64,000 nucleotides of DNA from Candidatus Omnitrophota bacterium (GTDB lineage Bacteria; Omnitrophota; Omnitrophia; Omnitrophales; Aquincolibacteriaceae). The stretch spans positions 39,020-103,019 of the forward strand of contig CAIOAT010000012.1 in NCBI GenBank assembly GCA_903856085.1. The letters are read 5' to 3'. Shown here in pieces: positions 17,079-25,580 of the stretch; position 1 is the first letter of the stretch, and each line of letters opens with the position of its first letter. The translations under genes were made by a program, and so were the position numbers. The notes beneath the pieces are model-generated. The model made no database searches. It was not told the DNA's origin and saw only the letters and a list, made by a program, of their open reading frames with translations.

Positions 17079-17107
17079 TTGACAGACGAAGCGACATGGG
17101 TTATATT
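17079..17107 (+). promoter_or_regulatory. candidate sigma70 promoter TTGACA-N17-TATATT for the rrf2-metY unit
   Basis: Near-consensus -35 and -10 hexamers with 17-nt spacing, about 30 nt upstream of the rrf2 ATG. Confidence 0.45.
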
Positions 17108-17136
17108 AGTGCCATCACTCTATGGGGTACTAGACT

Positions 17137-17589
17137 ATGATATCTAATAAGACAAAATATGCTCTCAAGGCCGTTCTGATGCTGACGGAGAAATACGCCT
17201 CGAAGGAACCGGTTTTGATTGCTGAGATCGCTGAAAAAGAATCCATTCCGAAGAAGTTCCTTGAAGCTATTCTCCTGGAACTCAAGAATAAAGGATTTCT
17301 GAAGAGCAAAAAGGGTAAGGGGGGCGGTTATCTTTTGGCCCGCTCTCCCAACCAGATCAGCTTCGGAGAGGTGATCGGGATCTTCGAGAACCCTTTTGGA
17401 GCGTTGCCTTGCTTGGATGGAAAGGCGAATCACCGGTGTGATGAATGCAAAAAAGGAAGTGTCTGCGGGATCCGAATGGTGATGCAAGAGGTCCATCGGA
17501 CGACCTCAAGCATTCTGAACGTGACATCGTTCCAGGATGTTCACGATCGAATGCGGAACACGAACCAGGAAGCCATGTATTTTATTTAA
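17137..17589 (+). CDS. Rrf2-family transcriptional regulator with Cys ligands (IscR/NsrR-like, probably Fe-S-binding)
   Basis: wHTH N-terminus [17 protein letters not shown]-terminal Cys set C-x8-C-x2-C-x5-C. Confidence 0.8.
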
Positions 17590-17612
17590 TTTTAAAAAAA
17601 GGAGAAAACAAA

Positions 17613-18911
17613 ATGAGCAAGATCGATAGCAGATTAAAAATTGAAACACTGGCGCTTCACGGAGGACAGGAAGCAGATCCGACGACGGGTTCCCGGGCTG
17701 TTCCTATTTATCAGACGACCTCCTATCAGTTCAAGAATACCGAACACGCAGCCAATCTTTTCGGGCTCAAGGAGTTCGGGAATATTTATACGCGTCTCAT
17801 GAATCCCACTACGGACGTATTTGAGAAACGCATCGCGCTTTTGGAGGGCGGTGTTGGGGCTCTTGCAACCTCAAGCGGTCAGTCCGCGATCACGCTCGCG
17901 CTTCTTAATATTGCGCAGGCGGGGGATGAGATTGTTTCCGCGGATAATCTCTACGGCGGAACGTACAATCTCTTTCACTACACGTTCCCCCGGTTGGGAA
18001 TCAAGGTCCACTTTGTAAAATCGAATGACCTGGAGGGTTTTCAAAAGGCCATCACGCCCAAGACCAAGGCCATTTACGCGGAATCGATCGGGAATCCGAA
18101 GCTCGATGTTGCGGATCTCGAAGGTATTTCCAAGATTGCACACAAGAACGGTATTCCGTTTGTGCTGGATAACACGGTGTCGCCTTATCTTTTGCGCCCG
18201 TTTGACCACGGCGTGGATATCATTGTGTATTCCGCGACGAAGTTCATCGGCGGGCACGGGACTTCGCTCGGCGGGGTGATCGTCGATTCCGGGAAATTCG
18301 ACTGGACGAGCGGGAAGTTCCCGCTGATCGCGGCGCCGGACCCGAGTTATCACGGTATCAATTTTGTAGAGGCACTGAAGCCGCTTGGCAATATCGCTTA
18401 CATTATCAAGGCGCGCGTGACGCTTTTAAGGGATCTTGGCTCGGCTTTGTCGCCCTTTAATGCGTTTCTTTTTTTGCAAGGGCTTGAGACGCTGCATCTC
18501 AGACTGCCGAGGCATGCCGAGAACGCATTGGCGGTGGCTCAGCACCTTGCGAAGCATTCGAAAGTTACTTGGGTGAATTATCCGGGACTTCCATCCAGTC
18601 CGGAGAAGGATCGTGTGAAGAGATATCTGCCTAAGGGGGCAGGTGCGATTCTGGGGTTCGGGATCAAAGGAGGGCTGGAAGCAGGCAAGAAGTTCATTGA
18701 TTCGCTCGAGCTTGTCTCGCATCTCGCGAACGTGGGGGACGCGAAGACGCTTGCGATCCATCCGGCGACGACCACGCATCAACAGCTTTCTCCGGCGGAG
18801 CAACTCGCCACAGGGGTCACACAGGATTTCATCCGTCTTTCGATCGGCTTGGAACATATCGACGACATTCTCGCGGATATCGATCAGGCCCTCAACAAAG
18901 CGGCAAAGTAG
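17613..18911 (+). CDS. metY: O-acetylhomoserine sulfhydrylase (aminocarboxypropyltransferase), PLP-dependent
   Basis: RBS AGGAGAA precedes the ATG. Cys/Met-metabolism PLP-enzyme motifs present (NPTTDVFE; [10 protein letters not shown]). Confidence 0.9.
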
Positions 18912-18917
18912 GATGTG

Positions 18918-23060: not shown

Positions 23061-23831
23061 GTGTCTAATCACAAAGATCTTGAGCACAATAAAAGGATCG
23101 TCGAGCAGTTTTCCAAGCAGGCCATCCCGTTTTCGGAGGTGCCGGGGCACCGGGATTTCATGCAGTTGCTGATCCAGATGTCTGGCGTTAGTTCTTCGGA
23201 TAATGTTCTGGACGTAGCTTGCGGTCCGGGACTGGTCGCTTGTGAATTCTCAAAAGTTGCGGATCATGTGACGGGGATCGATATTACCGCAAAAATGATC
23301 GAACGCGCCAGGTGCCTTCAGGAAGAAAAGCAGCTCACAAATATGGGCTGGTGCGTCCATGATATTTTACCCCTGCCTTATTCCGATAATGATTTTTCAA
23401 TTGTTCTGACCCGGTACAGTTTCCACCACTTCTTGAAGCCTGTGGAGGTGTTGGCGGAAATGATCCGAGTATGTAGGCCCGGGGGCAGGGTTCTGGTTGC
23501 CGATGTGGCATTGCCGTCCGAAAAATCAGCCACCTATGATCGCTTGGAGAAAATTCGCGATCCTTCTCATACGCATGCCCTCACAGTTCCGGAATTTGAG
23601 GCGTTGTTTGCAGCAAGCGGACTGGGGCATATCCAAAGAGGGTCTTATAAAGTCGAGTTGGAACTGGAGCAGCAGCTGAAGGCATCTTTTCCGGATCCCG
23701 GAGATGAAGAAAAGATCCGGGAGATTCTAAGGGCAGATCTTCATGAGGATAAGCTGGGCGTGGGTGTCCATCTCCAAGGGAATGAGATTCATTATTCGGT
23801 TCCGATAGAAGTCTTTGTCGGCCGTAAATAA
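23061..23831 (+). CDS. class I SAM-dependent methyltransferase
   Basis: GTG start. Carries motif I VLDVACGPG and a Methyltransf_11-like core. Confidence 0.75.
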   Translation: MSNHKDLEHNKRIVEQFSKQAIPFSEVPGHRDFMQLLIQMSGVSSSDNVLDVACGPGLVACEFSKVADHVTGIDITAKMIERARCLQEEKQLTNMGWCVHDILPLPYSDNDFSIVLTRYSFHHFLKPVEVLAEMIRVCRPGGRVLVADVALPSEKSATYDRLEKIRDPSHTHALTVPEFEALFAASGLGHIQRGSYKVELELEQQLKASFPDPGDEEKIREILRADLHEDKLGVGVHLQGNEIHYSVPIEVFVGRK

Positions 23832-23877
23832 AAAAAGGCAAGCGGTTTTTAAAAAGCCGCTTGTCCCGTTTATTTTT
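23828..23877. terminator. bidirectional rho-independent terminator between convergent genes
   Basis: An A-run, then stem GCAAGCGG ... CCGCTTGT, then a T-run. Confidence 0.6.
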
Positions 23878-23884
23878 ACTTTGG

Positions 23885-25021
23885 TTATTTCCCTAAGGCT
23901 TTCTTCAGATCCTCAATCAGATCGTCCGCGCTTTCGATGCCGACGGAGATACGGACGGTTTCTTTCGTGATGCCGGAAGCCTTGAGACCTTCGGGTCCCA
24001 TGGAAGCGTGGCTCATGCTCCATGGATGTTCGATCAGGGATTCCACGCCGCCTAATGATTCCGCCAATTGGAAGAGTTTCAGCTTTTTGAAGAATGGTTT
24101 GAGCGGAACTTTTTTTGTGTCCAGTTCGAACGCGAGCATGCCGCCGAAGCCCTTCATCTGTTTCTTGATCAAGCTCTGTTGGGGATGGCTTTCCAGACCC
24201 GTGTAATAGACCTGCTTGACACGGGGATGACCTTCGAGGAACGACGCGATCTTCAGGGCATTCCGTTGATGGGCTTCCATCCGGTAAGGCAGAGTCTTGA
24301 TCCCCCGGAGGACGAGCCAGGCATCAAAAGGGGCTTCGCTTACACCCAAGGCGTTCACGAAATAGCGTATCTTTTCTCCGAGAGCTTTATGGTTATAAAC
24401 AACCGCGCCGCCGACCACGTCGCTATGTCCGTTCAGATATTTTGTGGTGGAATGAATGATGATATCTGCGCCAAATTCAAATGGGCGCTGGAAGTACGGT
24501 GATAGAAAAGTATTATCCACGACGGTCAGGAGTTTTTTCTTTTTGGCCAGACCGATCACGGTCTCGAGATCCACGATGTGGAGCAGGGGATTGGACGGTG
24601 TTTCGATCCAGATCATCCGAGTGCTGGGCCGTATGGCTTTTTTGATGGCTTTCAAGTCCATCATGTTGATGAAAGAGAACGAGATCCCGCGTTTTGAGAA
24701 AATATCTTTGAATAAACGATACGTGCCACCGTAAATATCATTTCCCGTGACGACATGATCTCCCGGCTCCAGGAGGAAGAGAGCCGTCGTGATGGCTGCC
24801 ATGCCGGTTGCCGTGGCAGAGGCTCCCAGTCCGCCTTCGAGCGCCGCGATATTCTCCTCCAGGGCCCCGCGCGTCGGGTTGCCGCTTCGTGAGTAATCAT
24901 AGCCTTTGTGCTTTCCGAGCTCCTCAAAGCGGAAGGTGGAAGTCGGATAGAGCGGCGTGATGACGGAATTATACTGGGTGTCTTTGGCGGTGCCCGTGAG
25001 GACAGCCCTGGTTCGTATGTC
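23885..25021 (-). CDS. cystathionine gamma-synthase/beta-lyase family PLP enzyme (MetB/MetC/MGL-like)
   Basis: Start chosen at MDIRTRAVLTG. Carries YSRSGNPTR and the remaining Cys/Met-metabolism PLP motifs. The longer ORF to 25228 has a non-homologous N-terminal extension. Confidence 0.85.
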   Translation of the reverse strand, partial: DIRTRAVLTGTAKDTQYNSVITPLYPTSTFRFEELGKHKGYDYSRSGNPTRGALEENIAALEGGLGASATATGMAAITTALFLLEPGDHVVTGNDIYGGTYRLFKDIFSKRGISFSFINMMDLKAIKKAIRPSTRMIWIETPSNPLLHIVDLETVIGLAKKKKLLTVVDNTFLSPYFQRPFEFGADIIIHSTTKYLNGHSDVVGGAVVYNHKALGEKIRYFVNALGVSEAPFDAWLVLRGIKTLPYRMEAHQRNALKIASFLEGHPRVKQVYYTGLESHPQQSLIKKQMKGFGGMLAFELDTKKVPLKPFFKKLKLFQLAESLGGVESLIEHPWSMSHASMGPEGLKASGITKETVRISVGIESADDLIEDLKKALGK

Positions 25022-25178
25022 CATGAGTGCTTTTCCTCTCTTGAGTTCAAATCCGTTTATAATGGCGAGTGATAGCGTGTATGGTAAGCGGAAAATAAAA
25101 CAAGGGCAAATGGAAAAAGGTTTTAAATTGACGGCGAAATAAGCGCTTGATACAATTCCTACTAACCTTATAGGGATT

Positions 25179-25580
25179 ATGAAGCTAACCACTCGCAGCG
25201 AATACGTTTTTCTTGCCATCTTGAGCATTGCCCGTTCGAAAGAGAAGGGCTATATCCCGTTGTCTAAAATCGCCAGGGAACAAAAATTACCCATGAAATA
25301 CATGGAACAACTGATGCAAACCCTGTGCAGGTCCGGTTATCTTTCCAGCTCACGCGGCAAGGAGGGCGGGTACCGTTTGGCAAAGCCGGCCCGGAAAATC
25401 ACAATCGCAGAAATCATTCGTTTGTTTGACGGCCCCTTGGCGCCCACGGAATCCGTGAGCACGTATTTTTACAGACTCACGCCGCTTTCGAGAGAAAAAA
25501 AACTGCTCGGAGTGATGCAGGAGATCCGGGATTATGTTTCCAATGCTTTGGAAAAAACGACGATTGCAGATGTGCTGTAA
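25179..25580 (+). CDS. Rrf2-family transcriptional regulator lacking Cys ligands (CymR-like)
   Basis: MKLTTRSEYVFLAIL wHTH N-terminus. No C-terminal cysteine triad. Confidence 0.8.
   Translation: MKLTTRSEYVFLAILSIARSKEKGYIPLSKIAREQKLPMKYMEQLMQTLCRSGYLSSSRGKEGGYRLAKPARKITIAEIIRLFDGPLAPTESVSTYFYRLTPLSREKKLLGVMQEIRDYVSNALEKTTIADVL

Follow-up and report, generated by a model that had tools for sequence, protein, structure and literature searches.

A candidate reduced-sulfur assimilation operon of Omnitrophota with an embedded, predicted DUF3034 outer-membrane barrel, a structured leader RNA and two proteins with putative CysK-docking tails

We analysed a 64,000-nucleotide stretch of contig CAIOAT010000012.1 from a Candidatus Omnitrophota bacterium (hereafter the window, in whose positions all coordinates are given). 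In it, a sulfur amino-acid gene cluster at 17079-23027, headed by an Rrf2 regulator gene, encloses the gene of a predicted outer-membrane beta-barrel protein of the DUF3034 family, which is preceded by a small DUF2292/YezD-family gene. Gene calls were taken from the map of open reading frames (ORFs), Pfam and NCBIfam, and they bear out the gene content and order proposed in a preliminary description of this DNA. The core of the locus is as follows.

17079-17107, + strand: sigma-70-type operon promoter, TTGACA-N17-TATATT (11/12)
17120-17133, - strand: operator box 1, reading CTAGTACCCCATAG, between the -10 hexamer and the Rrf2-A ATG
17137-17589, + strand: Rrf2-A (Pfam Rrf2, 113 bits)
17613-18911, + strand: MetY, O-acetylhomoserine sulfhydrylase (homocysteine synthase; TIGR01326, 681.9 against a cut-off of 495.1)
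18918-19118, + strand: DUF2292/YezD-family small protein, 66 aa (PF10055, 51.6 against 22)
19143-19237, + strand: leader RNA (covariance-model match at 19173-19226, 44.3 bits)
19143-19154, + strand: leader hairpin HP1
19179-19192, + strand: leader switch strand, UUUCGCCUUUCCGA
19193-19204, + strand: leader hairpin HP2
19210-19214, + strand: 3' strand of leader helix P1, GGGGC
19223-19237, + strand: leader strand UCGGACAAGGAGAAA, which contains the ribosome-binding site (Shine-Dalgarno sequence 9 nt before the ATG)
19244-20137, + strand: DUF3034 outer-membrane protein, predicted beta-barrel, 297 aa (PF11231, 63.1 against 25)
20191-21123, + strand: CysK, O-acetylserine sulfhydrylase A (TIGR01139, 471.9 against 350.95)
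21120-22238, + strand: MetX, homoserine O-acyltransferase (NF001209, 483 against 331)
22434-23027, + strand: MetW (TIGR02081, 229 against 189.5), adjoining metX

The locus consists of an ordinary pathway and three undescribed accessories. MetX with MetW, followed by MetY, would carry homoserine through O-acetylhomoserine to homocysteine, and CysK would turn O-acetylserine into cysteine, because the family scores give the identities of the genes and the roles of those families are known. The same locus also holds a transsulfuration-family enzyme, described below, so that the combination of direct sulfhydrylation (MetX/MetW and MetY), CysK and such an enzyme, as first proposed, is supported. MetY falls just under the cut-off of the homocysteine synthase equivalog NF006096 (724.8 against 726). 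CysK is of the CysK and not the CysM type (the CysM models score 298-308, under their cut-offs), and a TSGNTG loop is seen in its ORF translation. The family scores of MetX fit an acetyl or a succinyl donor alike. Read directly in the sequence, the start of metX overlaps the stop of cysK as ATGA, which confirms the coupling claimed for these two genes; metW is the last operon gene in most relatives. The promoter named in the preliminary description is present, is the best promoter-like site within 16500-26000, and has its -35 hexamer, spacing and -10 hexamer kept in nine orthologous loci. Taken together, 17079-23027 rather probably forms one autoregulated operon that leads reduced sulfur into cysteine and methionine.

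We assessed the association of the barrel with this pathway by scanning one genome per species (GTDB) with the barrel alignment as query, which gave 79 loci whose barrels are 43-92% identical. The database homologs of both the barrel and Rrf2-A come from Candidatus Omnitrophota metagenome-assembled genomes (MAGs). The labels of the loci span about a dozen lineages: Omnitrophota, Phycisphaerae/Sedimentisphaerales and other Planctomycetota (one contig being labelled Kuenenia), Verrucomicrobiota, Kiritimatiellales, Lentisphaerae/Victivallales, Elusimicrobia/Endomicrobiaceae, Desulfomonilia, Syntrophus, Geobacteraceae, Nitrospiraceae and Ratteibacteria, although binning errors may account for some of the MAG labels. 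In 73 of the 79 loci the barrel has MetY or CysK no more than 3 kb away (MetY is near it in 68, CysK in 61), which upholds the proposed tie between the embedded barrel and the sulfur pathway. A DUF2292 gene is found at most 600 bp upstream of the barrel in 55/79 loci and an Rrf2 gene at most 5 kb away in 46/79. Other recurrent neighbours, sulfur or Fe-S enzymes as well, are NadA (12 loci), a serine-acetyltransferase (SAT)-like hexapeptide protein (10 loci), the thiazole synthase Thi4 (9 loci), NifU (8 loci), ThiF/MoeB (7 loci) and an ArsP_1 permease (6 loci); no inner-membrane transporter is consistently present among the 79 loci. Non-suicidal forms of Thi4 use sulfide. The tie between barrel and pathway, made by guilt by association, is strong, and it names no substrate.

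Three features of these neighbourhoods deserve mention in their own right. Thi4 is encoded directly upstream of DUF2292 in one locus (L077, 7791-8627), and eight further loci carry it. In eight Phycisphaerae/Sedimentisphaerales loci (L015, L038, L054, L060, L061, L067, L069 and L070, at about 2600-9500), a second unit diverges from DUF2292-barrel-MetY-CysK and comprises an Rrf2 gene (protein tail ...DYQI), CysK, the SAT-like acetyltransferase, NadA, a second MetY, NifU and NifS; a representative of the SAT-like protein has a Lys-rich end, without the C-terminal Ile that CysE normally uses for CysK binding. Finally, the barrel loci without DUF2292 and leader (L017, L020, L022, L026, L039, L044, L078 and similar ones) are mostly labelled Verrucomicrobiota, Kiritimatiellales or Lentisphaerae. 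In place of those elements they often have a gene of the cystathionine gamma-synthase (CGS) family, a distant relative of CysK/CysM (45-49% identity) and an E1 of the ThiF/MoeB type (7 loci overall), and so hint at a module variant based on a protein thiocarboxylate or on reverse transsulfuration.

The barrel protein itself starts at the ATG at 19244. An outer-membrane beta-barrel of 298 aa ending in HYAF had been proposed; the barrel and the ...HYAF C-terminus hold, and the length becomes 297 aa with a start one codon later. Its signal peptide ends SYA/G and it has no Cys. In an alignment of 27 homologs, an N-terminal motif is strongly conserved, and many charged residues of the barrel region are invariant. 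AlphaFold2 builds 12 long beta-strands and one short strand, with a predicted local distance difference test (pLDDT) of 77 and a predicted template-modelling score (pTM) of 0.72. The PF11231 match spans only residues 98-279; no NCBIfam model matches the protein, Pfam at E ≤ 1 gives nothing beyond DUF3034, and a PDB sequence search returns nothing even at E ≤ 10. The best structural match of the model is FapF, and autotransporter beta-domains are matched as well. DUF3034 is accordingly described here as a predicted 12-stranded outer-membrane channel, and a generic OmpA/OmpW-like structural protein is not what the topology and profile searches point to: 12 strands are predicted and no 8-strand family is matched. 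It resembles the known 12-stranded channels (the KdgM/NanC family, the COG4313 channel Pput2725 and the FapF translocator) at only 8-13% sequence identity. It differs from them in a conserved N-terminal 60-residue segment of its own and in its partners, which are sulfur-assimilation enzymes and not sugar-acid, hydrophobic-compound or amyloid systems. A literature search returned nothing tying DUF3034 to any function, or a MetY-linked outer-membrane protein to this system. A thiol-based receptor for elemental sulfur was set aside, the barrel having no Cys.

We give a slightly better than even chance to the barrel importing the sulfur that MetY and CysK use. Most likely this would be sulfide, or else a small reduced inorganic sulfur species closely related to it, because sulfide-using enzymes cluster around the barrel, no inner-membrane transporter is co-encoded and the barrel holds invariant charged residues. 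An unlikely rival is a different role in the same pathway: the barrel could export excess sulfide, cysteine, homocysteine or O-acetylserine, import organic sulfur such as methanethiol or methionine, or serve another envelope function in sulfur limitation. Linkage gives neither direction nor substrate, FapF and the autotransporter domains are exporters, MetY is able to use methanethiol, and tail-bearing relatives of DUF2292 also lie beside MetQ-type methionine-binding lipoproteins and nitrogenase-like genes. Against such a role stand the most constant partners of the barrel, which are two sulfide-fixing enzymes, and the recurrence of Thi4, which also requires sulfur; no gene for a cargo protein or a secretion partner lies close by. 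Moreover, the lack of Cys and the many invariant charged residues fit a small polar solute, and an operon with repressor features that should lift in sulfur limitation suits acquisition better than disposal.

The spacer between the DUF2292 and barrel genes, which measures 80-145 nt in most loci, contains two small hairpins lying 31-57 nt apart. HP1 reads CCGG-ACGA-CCGG, with the variants GCGG/CCGC and TCGG/CCGA, and HP2, which hardly varies, reads ACCAG-WCNN-CUGGA. A helix, P1, encloses HP2; the sequence of P1 varies by lineage yet remains complementary (GUACC/GGUAC, GCAGG/CCUGC, GCUU/AAGC, UUACC/GGUAA). When the 5' and 3' flanks were swapped among loci, none of 2,000 derangements reached the native mean energy. 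A covariance model built on 14 sequences and run at E ≤ 1 over both strands of 1.3 Mb gave 51 matches, and each of the 51 directly precedes a barrel gene on its sense strand. In the covariance-model alignment, which is fitted to the structure under test, 78% of cells are paired against 25-44% with slid partners, and covariation scores 0.378, with a maximum of 0.115 in the controls; none of 500 shuffles reached the native value. The motif is present in 48 of the 55 loci with DUF2292, against 2 of the 24 without it (raw counts, kinship ignored). Across about a dozen bacterial lineages, DUF2292, the structured leader and DUF3034 keep together as one module.

In the clade of the window the leader has two mutually exclusive pairings available. 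The strand UUUCGCCUUUCCGA pairs either with GGGGC, forming P1, or, over 13 bp, with UCGGACAAGGAGAAA, which holds the Shine-Dalgarno (SD) sequence. This anti-SD helix is paired in 11/11 sequences of the clade, with one compensatory CG-to-UA change, and further compensatory changes are found in HP1 and HP2. Searches with the 4227 families of Rfam 15 gave no leader match in the window at gathering thresholds and nothing at E ≤ 1 over 16900-25300, hence no S-adenosylmethionine (SAM) or other riboswitch. The whole intergenic region of the window folds no better than its shuffles (z = -0.32), so the case for structure rests on covariation and not on energy. From an ungapped hairpin alignment, RNAalifold recovered the inner stem only; the internal loops vary in length. 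In two loci (L040:1961-2014 and L042:9922-9975), the sequence CCUGG-ACGA-CCAG just 5' of HP2 could form a competing hairpin, maybe a second kind of switch in another clade.

On this comparative evidence we regard the leader as a genuine structured RNA, and it seems on balance likely that it regulates translation of the barrel gene. The likeness is to leaders that sequester the ribosome-binding site, namely translational riboswitches and protein-bound leaders, in which one 5' strand likewise takes part in two exclusive folds, one of them with the Shine-Dalgarno sequence; the conserved hairpin core with covarying enclosing helices is a further resemblance. The barrel leader differs in its position, inside an operon between the DUF2292 and barrel genes and not at the operon 5' end. 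The intergenic hairpins could instead be DNA operators (the palindromes CCGG-N4-CCGG and CCAG-N4-CTGG) or hairpins that stabilise or process the mRNA. Both stems are indeed short, sequence-conserved palindromes 31-57 nt apart, the folding energy of the intergenic region in the window is unremarkable, and no ligand or terminator is evident. This explanation is nevertheless improbable, since P1 changes by lineage and stays complementary (GTACC/GGTAC, GCAGG/CCTGC, GCTT/AAGC), as expected of RNA and not of DNA read by a protein, all matches run in the sense direction of the barrel gene, the inner stems carry compensatory changes, and the alternative helix pairs with the ribosome-binding site.

We then consider the regulators. 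Rrf2-A and a second protein encoded downstream, Rrf2-B, both belong to the Rrf2 family (PF02082, cut-off 30: 113 and 103 bits, respectively; TIGR00738, cut-off 73.3: 104.7 and 108.1). Neither reaches the CymR equivalog NF047409 (Rrf2-A 67 and Rrf2-B 86.7 against 195 bits) or the IscR equivalog (Rrf2-A 65 against 207 bits, Rrf2-B also below the cut-off). Rrf2-A has four Cys, of which C92, C104 and C110, located after the wing, are at least 90% conserved across phyla, a pattern like that of cluster-binding Rrf2 proteins of the IscR/NsrR type, and it ends in ...QEAMYFI. Such a [YFW]-x-Ile tail is found in 45 of the 46 Rrf2 proteins encoded beside barrel clusters, across phyla, and is lacking in Rrf2 paralogs elsewhere in the same loci. 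Tail and at least three Cys are combined in 115 of the 120 best database homologs of Rrf2-A, all of which are annotated merely as 'Rrf2 family'.

This tail recalls CymR. The C-terminal peptide of Staphylococcus aureus CymR, EDLDGYMFYI, fills the active site of CysK with nanomolar affinity, its terminal Ile carboxylate taking the substrate position, and CymR had previously been seen only in Gram-positives (10.1101/2024.09.19.614015). The CymR-CysK complex represses at low O-acetylserine and dissociates at high O-acetylserine (PMC3828012). As in Bacillus subtilis and S. aureus, an Rrf2 protein that represses cysteine and sulfur genes would here be encoded near or with cysK, and the C-terminal aromatic-x-Ile is alike (...MFYI in S. 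aureus CymR, ...MYFI in Rrf2-A). Rrf2-A differs in being only 26-30% related, in keeping three cluster-type Cys as IscR and NsrR do, and in occurring in Omnitrophota, the Planctomycetes-Verrucomicrobia-Chlamydiae (PVC) group and other lineages in which two membranes are expected. Rrf2-A looks like a hybrid of IscR/NsrR-type cysteines and a CymR-type tail, and by analogy we consider it reasonably likely that this tail docks into CysK.

Beyond metW, the window continues with the following features.

23061-23831, + strand: class I SAM-dependent methyltransferase (Methyltransf_31/11/25; no equivalog match)
23837-23865: bidirectional intrinsic terminator with a 13-bp stem, from a terminator scan
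23885-25024, - strand: Cys_Met_Meta_PP enzyme of the cystathionine gamma-synthase/gamma-lyase family (CGS-like; PF01053, 498 bits)
25128-25156, + strand: second promoter, TTGACG-N17-TACAAT with an upstream TG, preceding Rrf2-B
25159-25173, + strand: operator box 2, CTACTAACCTTATAG, the motif running on as GGATTATGAAG to 25184
25179-25580, + strand: Rrf2-B (Pfam Rrf2)
25628-26413, + strand: ABC_tran-like ATPase
26410-27111, + strand: CobW-like GTPase
about 27113-28291, + strand: NifS-type cysteine desulfurase
28316-29017, + strand: PF04060 Fe-S-domain protein

The terminator at 23837-23865 is the only strong one and sits between the convergent methyltransferase and CGS-like genes. The start of the CGS-like gene was corrected from 25027 to 25024; every NCBIfam equivalog is under its cut-off for this enzyme, and gamma-synthase and gamma-lyase both fit. 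The second promoter and box 2 lie in the region common to the divergent CGS-like and Rrf2-B genes. Rrf2-B heads an operon of its own, 25179-29017, transcribed away from the sulfur amino-acid operon. We compared the window at the nucleotide level with eight close relatives, the contigs of seven of which extend past metW. All eight are collinear with the window from the upstream genes through metW, and in the seven, collinearity resumes after metW at window position 29200 (QueF, peroxiredoxin). Only one relative (L001) retains the CGS-like gene, and the methyltransferase, Rrf2-B and later genes are found in none. The segment 23030-29200 is a lineage-specific addition of 6.2 kb, inserted between metW and the QueF gene. 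The layout of the Rrf2-B operon resembles that of iscR-iscS type operons, in which a cysteine desulfurase gene comes after that of an Rrf2 regulator: downstream of Rrf2-B, in the same direction, lie the genes of the NifS-type desulfurase and of the Fe-S-domain protein. It differs in that Rrf2-B lacks the three cluster Cys of IscR and scores under the IscR cut-off, and in that the window operon also encodes the ABC-type ATPase and the CobW-like GTPase but neither IscU nor IscA.

The preliminary description had placed related boxes at both rrf2 genes as possible autoregulatory sites of the two regulators. The boxes are real, at 17120-17133 and 25159-25173, and are in our reading a single operator type and not two regulator-specific ones. 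Box 1 is of the CTACTA-N5-ATAG operator type in inverted orientation, and the clade of the window keeps TCTATGGGGTTA(C/G)TAGACTATG (TCTATGGGGTTA(C/G)TAGA) between the -10 hexamer and the Rrf2-A ATG. Box 2, in the context TACAAT-TC-CTACTAACCTTATAGGGATTATGAAG, agrees with the operator of distant loci in type, orientation and position. There (at least 20 loci), aligned promoters of rrf2 genes that encode tail-bearing proteins read TTGACA-N17-TATACT with CTACTA-N5-ATAG-AG-ATTATAGAG directly after it, and several of the operators read ATAGGAATT. The pattern CTA[CG]TA-N4-5-[AT]TAG has exactly two matches in the 64-kb window, those of box 1 (-) and box 2 (+), each between a -10 hexamer and an rrf2 ATG; their number equals the chance expectation, and their positions are not explained by chance. 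In the 79 loci the total of 21 matches is likewise equal to the shuffled expectation, and 15 of them precede an Rrf2 or DUF2292 gene by at most 150 nt. Most simply, the operator would be bound by the Rrf2-A class. Were box 2 bound in this way, the Rrf2-B/NifS operon and the divergent CGS-like gene would fall into the same regulon.

These observations bear on the earlier proposal that two Rrf2 regulators flank and jointly control one pathway, the cluster-type protein sensing Fe-S and the cluster-less, CymR-like one sensing the cysteine pool, each autoregulating through its own box. A promoter and a related box do stand directly 5' of each rrf2 ATG, the divergent Rrf2-B and CGS-like genes have a region of 154 bp in common, and the CymR model gives Rrf2-B a slightly better score (86.7 bits) than Rrf2-A (67 bits). 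We nonetheless find such dual control quite improbable. Rrf2-B and all of 23030-29200 are missing from seven close relatives and mostly missing from the eighth, Rrf2-B is followed by a NifS/Fe-S operon in an iscR-like layout, and both CymR scores are far under the 195-bit cut-off. In addition, box 2 matches the operator that precedes, in other phyla, the genes of tail-bearing Rrf2 proteins. The description of the second regulator as Cys-less and CymR-like also needs amending: Rrf2-A has Cys, as stated, and Rrf2-B has no cluster Cys, but it is not entirely without Cys, having a single one, C50, outside the cluster region. The CymR-like label was misplaced, since Rrf2-B ends in ...ADVL and lacks the CysK-binding Ile tail that Rrf2-A and 45/46 of the cluster-linked Rrf2 proteins have.

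DUF2292, which precedes the leader, has a tail of comparable interest. The window protein is 100% identical to P0121, and its AlphaFold2 model shows a helix and a beta-hairpin, with a C-terminal tail that is disordered, the sequence ending in -QGGGI. It scores 38.1 on the OscA equivalog NF033785, below the cut-off of 85, in an alignment that stops before the C-terminus. A -GI end is found in 53 of the 55 cluster-linked orthologs, nearly all of which end -E-x-G-G-G-I. An exhaustive DUF2292 search of 1.8 billion representatives gave 294 relatives, and among the best 150, inspected for tails, 76 have a G-x-G-I end, 37 of them with a single domain (...EKGGGI) and 39 with tandem domains (...GLYGDGI, ...GLDGEGI); about half are tail-less. 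The pentapeptide YGDGI is the C-terminus of Salmonella CysE and binds CysK with a dissociation constant (KD) of 11.8 uM (PMC9547175); the tail of Escherichia coli CysE reads INHTFEYGDGI (PMC6829319); and CysE, the CdiA-CT toxin and EGL-9 all dock into CysK homologs by a C-terminal Ile (PMC5562914). A metagenome scan with the tandem form gave 12 tail-bearing loci (L080-L091), in 5 of which a MetY, CysK or CGS-family gene adjoins.

The likeness to CysE-CysK, CdiA-CT(EC536) and EGL-9/CYSL-1 thus concerns a flexible, Ile-ending tail that enters CysK, to which ...GGGI and the two-domain ...YGDGI and ...DGEGI correspond; DUF2292 differs from CysE in being a protein of 66 aa, a helix and a hairpin without an enzymatic domain. 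By this analogy, docking of the DUF2292 tail into CysK has somewhat less than an even chance, and we propose the tailed half of the family as candidate CysK partners. More broadly, DUF2292 is a sulfur-metabolism protein, in line with OscA/YezD of the Pseudomonas sulfur-starvation response, with which it has Pfam PF10055 in common and which is co-expressed with sulfate and sulfonate acquisition genes; the window protein falls outside the OscA equivalog, and about half of the family is without the G-x-G-I tail. A literature search on DUF2292/YezD gave nothing linking the family to this system. A CsrA-like RNA-binding role was set aside, the resemblance being by eye alone. That DUF2292 is a sulfur carrier of the ThiS/CysO/HcyS kind, its Gly-Gly exposed by trimming of the last residue or residues and thiocarboxylated to feed MetY or CysK, is very improbable: the ...GGGI end is conserved, the gene adjoins MetY (that of Wolinella uses the HcyS thiocarboxylate) and the DUF2292-less barrel loci often hold a ThiF/MoeB E1 (7 loci) that could be a functional replacement, but no E1 or JAMM protease is prominent among the recurrent neighbours of DUF2292 loci (not tabulated locus by locus), the G-D-G-I, G-E-G-I and Y-G-D-G-I tails match CysE and not the GG ends of carriers, the tail is missing in about half of the family, and a helix-plus-hairpin fold with an Ile-ending tail is not that of the ThiS/MoaD type.

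Two further observations on DUF2292 were made outside the barrel loci. The other tandem-form loci place it beside MetQ/NlpA lipoproteins, an ABC permease, a PP-loop ATPase, DUF1847 and an Oxidored_nitro pair (the last in L087). Tail-less DUF2292 genes often adjoin an Rrf2 gene, usually just after it (L106, L113, L115, L118, L128, L130, L137, L142, L152 and L156), so the Rrf2-DUF2292 pairing exists outside the barrel module.

Apart from these subjects, the window holds some features that we simply record. The segment of about 148 nt between metX and metW, 22239-22386, has no counterpart in the relatives, where the gap is about 70 nt; the segment of the window holds a perfect 18-nt palindrome, GGCTTTAAATTTAAAGCC, at 22270-22287, and a promoter-like site lies 3' of the palindrome at 22396-22424. 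Just upstream of the operon promoter, an 81-aa ORF at 16650-16895 on the - strand is conserved at the nucleotide level in relatives, and Pfam gave no match to it. A tRNA at 38526-38599 is the sole Rfam match in the whole window at gathering thresholds.

A regulatory scheme can be built by analogy to the CymR-CysK and CysE-CysK complexes. Rrf2-A would bind the CTACTA-N5-ATAG operators just 3' of the -10 hexamer, at its own promoter and at the intergenic promoter of Rrf2-B and the CGS-like gene. Its activity would be set by docking of the ...Y-F-I tail into the CysK active site, from which O-acetylserine would release it when sulfur is scarce; its three conserved Cys probably contribute too. DUF2292, with a CysE-like ...G-G-G-I on a disordered C-terminus, would be a second partner of CysK. 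The leader RNA would set barrel expression separately, by forming either P1 with its hairpin or, in the clade of the window, the 13-bp helix that buries the ribosome-binding site. The barrel would then be a substrate-specific outer-membrane channel admitting the sulfur source of MetY and CysK, and the 6.2-kb addition would at most be wired into the same regulon through box 2. Taken as a whole (operon, barrel channel, tails of Rrf2-A and DUF2292, leader RNA), we favour this reading with some reserve. A more daring version, to which we assign a low probability, makes CysK a single sulfur sensor read at two levels: the Fe-S-type Rrf2-A, docked into CysK, would repress transcription at the CTACTA-N5-ATAG operators, and DUF2292, which would dock into CysK by its G-x-G-I tail, would bind both leader hairpins, alone or in complex with CysK, and so control translation of DUF3034, with O-acetylserine displacing both tails when sulfur is scarce and so turning on the operon and the sulfide channel.

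Several points weigh against the scheme as a whole. Co-transcription of the core genes is plausible, because the gaps are short, one pair overlaps as ATGA and the only strong terminator follows the last gene, and it is read from these features. The 79 loci are related through the query, so that their counts are not phylogenetically independent. Gene linkage is silent on the substrate of the barrel and on the direction of transport, and AlphaFold2 confidence is low over the conserved N-terminal 60 residues, which makes gating unreadable in the model. H2S crosses membranes unaided, and the need for a channel is not obvious. Besides the fitted alignment behind the covariation figures, the anti-SD helix is mostly invariant and is documented in the clade of the window only. 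Rrf2-A is far under the CymR cut-off (67 against 195 bits) and has cluster-type Cys, unlike Bacillus CymR; docking of its tail and of that of DUF2292 is suggested by sequence mimicry. As for the operators, box 1 of the window is one T short relative to its relatives, and Rrf2-A and Rrf2-B are both candidates for binding box 2.

What appears new here, from comparison of sequences, is the CysE-like tail of DUF2292 and the covarying leader upstream of the barrel gene. DUF3034, on which there is essentially no literature, and DUF2292/YezD/OscA, for which there is a phenotype and no mechanism, gain a hypothesis backed by linkage in about a dozen lineages. The leader is a compact, highly specific candidate for a regulatory RNA, supported by covariation and with a plausible on/off mechanism. 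So far, CysE, CymR, a contact-dependent inhibition (CDI) toxin and EGL-9 are known to dock into the active site of CysK, and the tails described here suggest a far wider use, in diderms and in a family of small proteins. Were CysK a sensor read at two levels, DUF2292/YezD/OscA and DUF3034 would acquire functions, a new class of cis-regulatory RNA would be added, and CymR-type control would extend to bacteria with two membranes. If true, a dedicated outer-membrane route for sulfur in sulfide-assimilating anaerobes would alter models of sulfur acquisition in Omnitrophota, Planctomycetota, Verrucomicrobiota and related uncultured groups.

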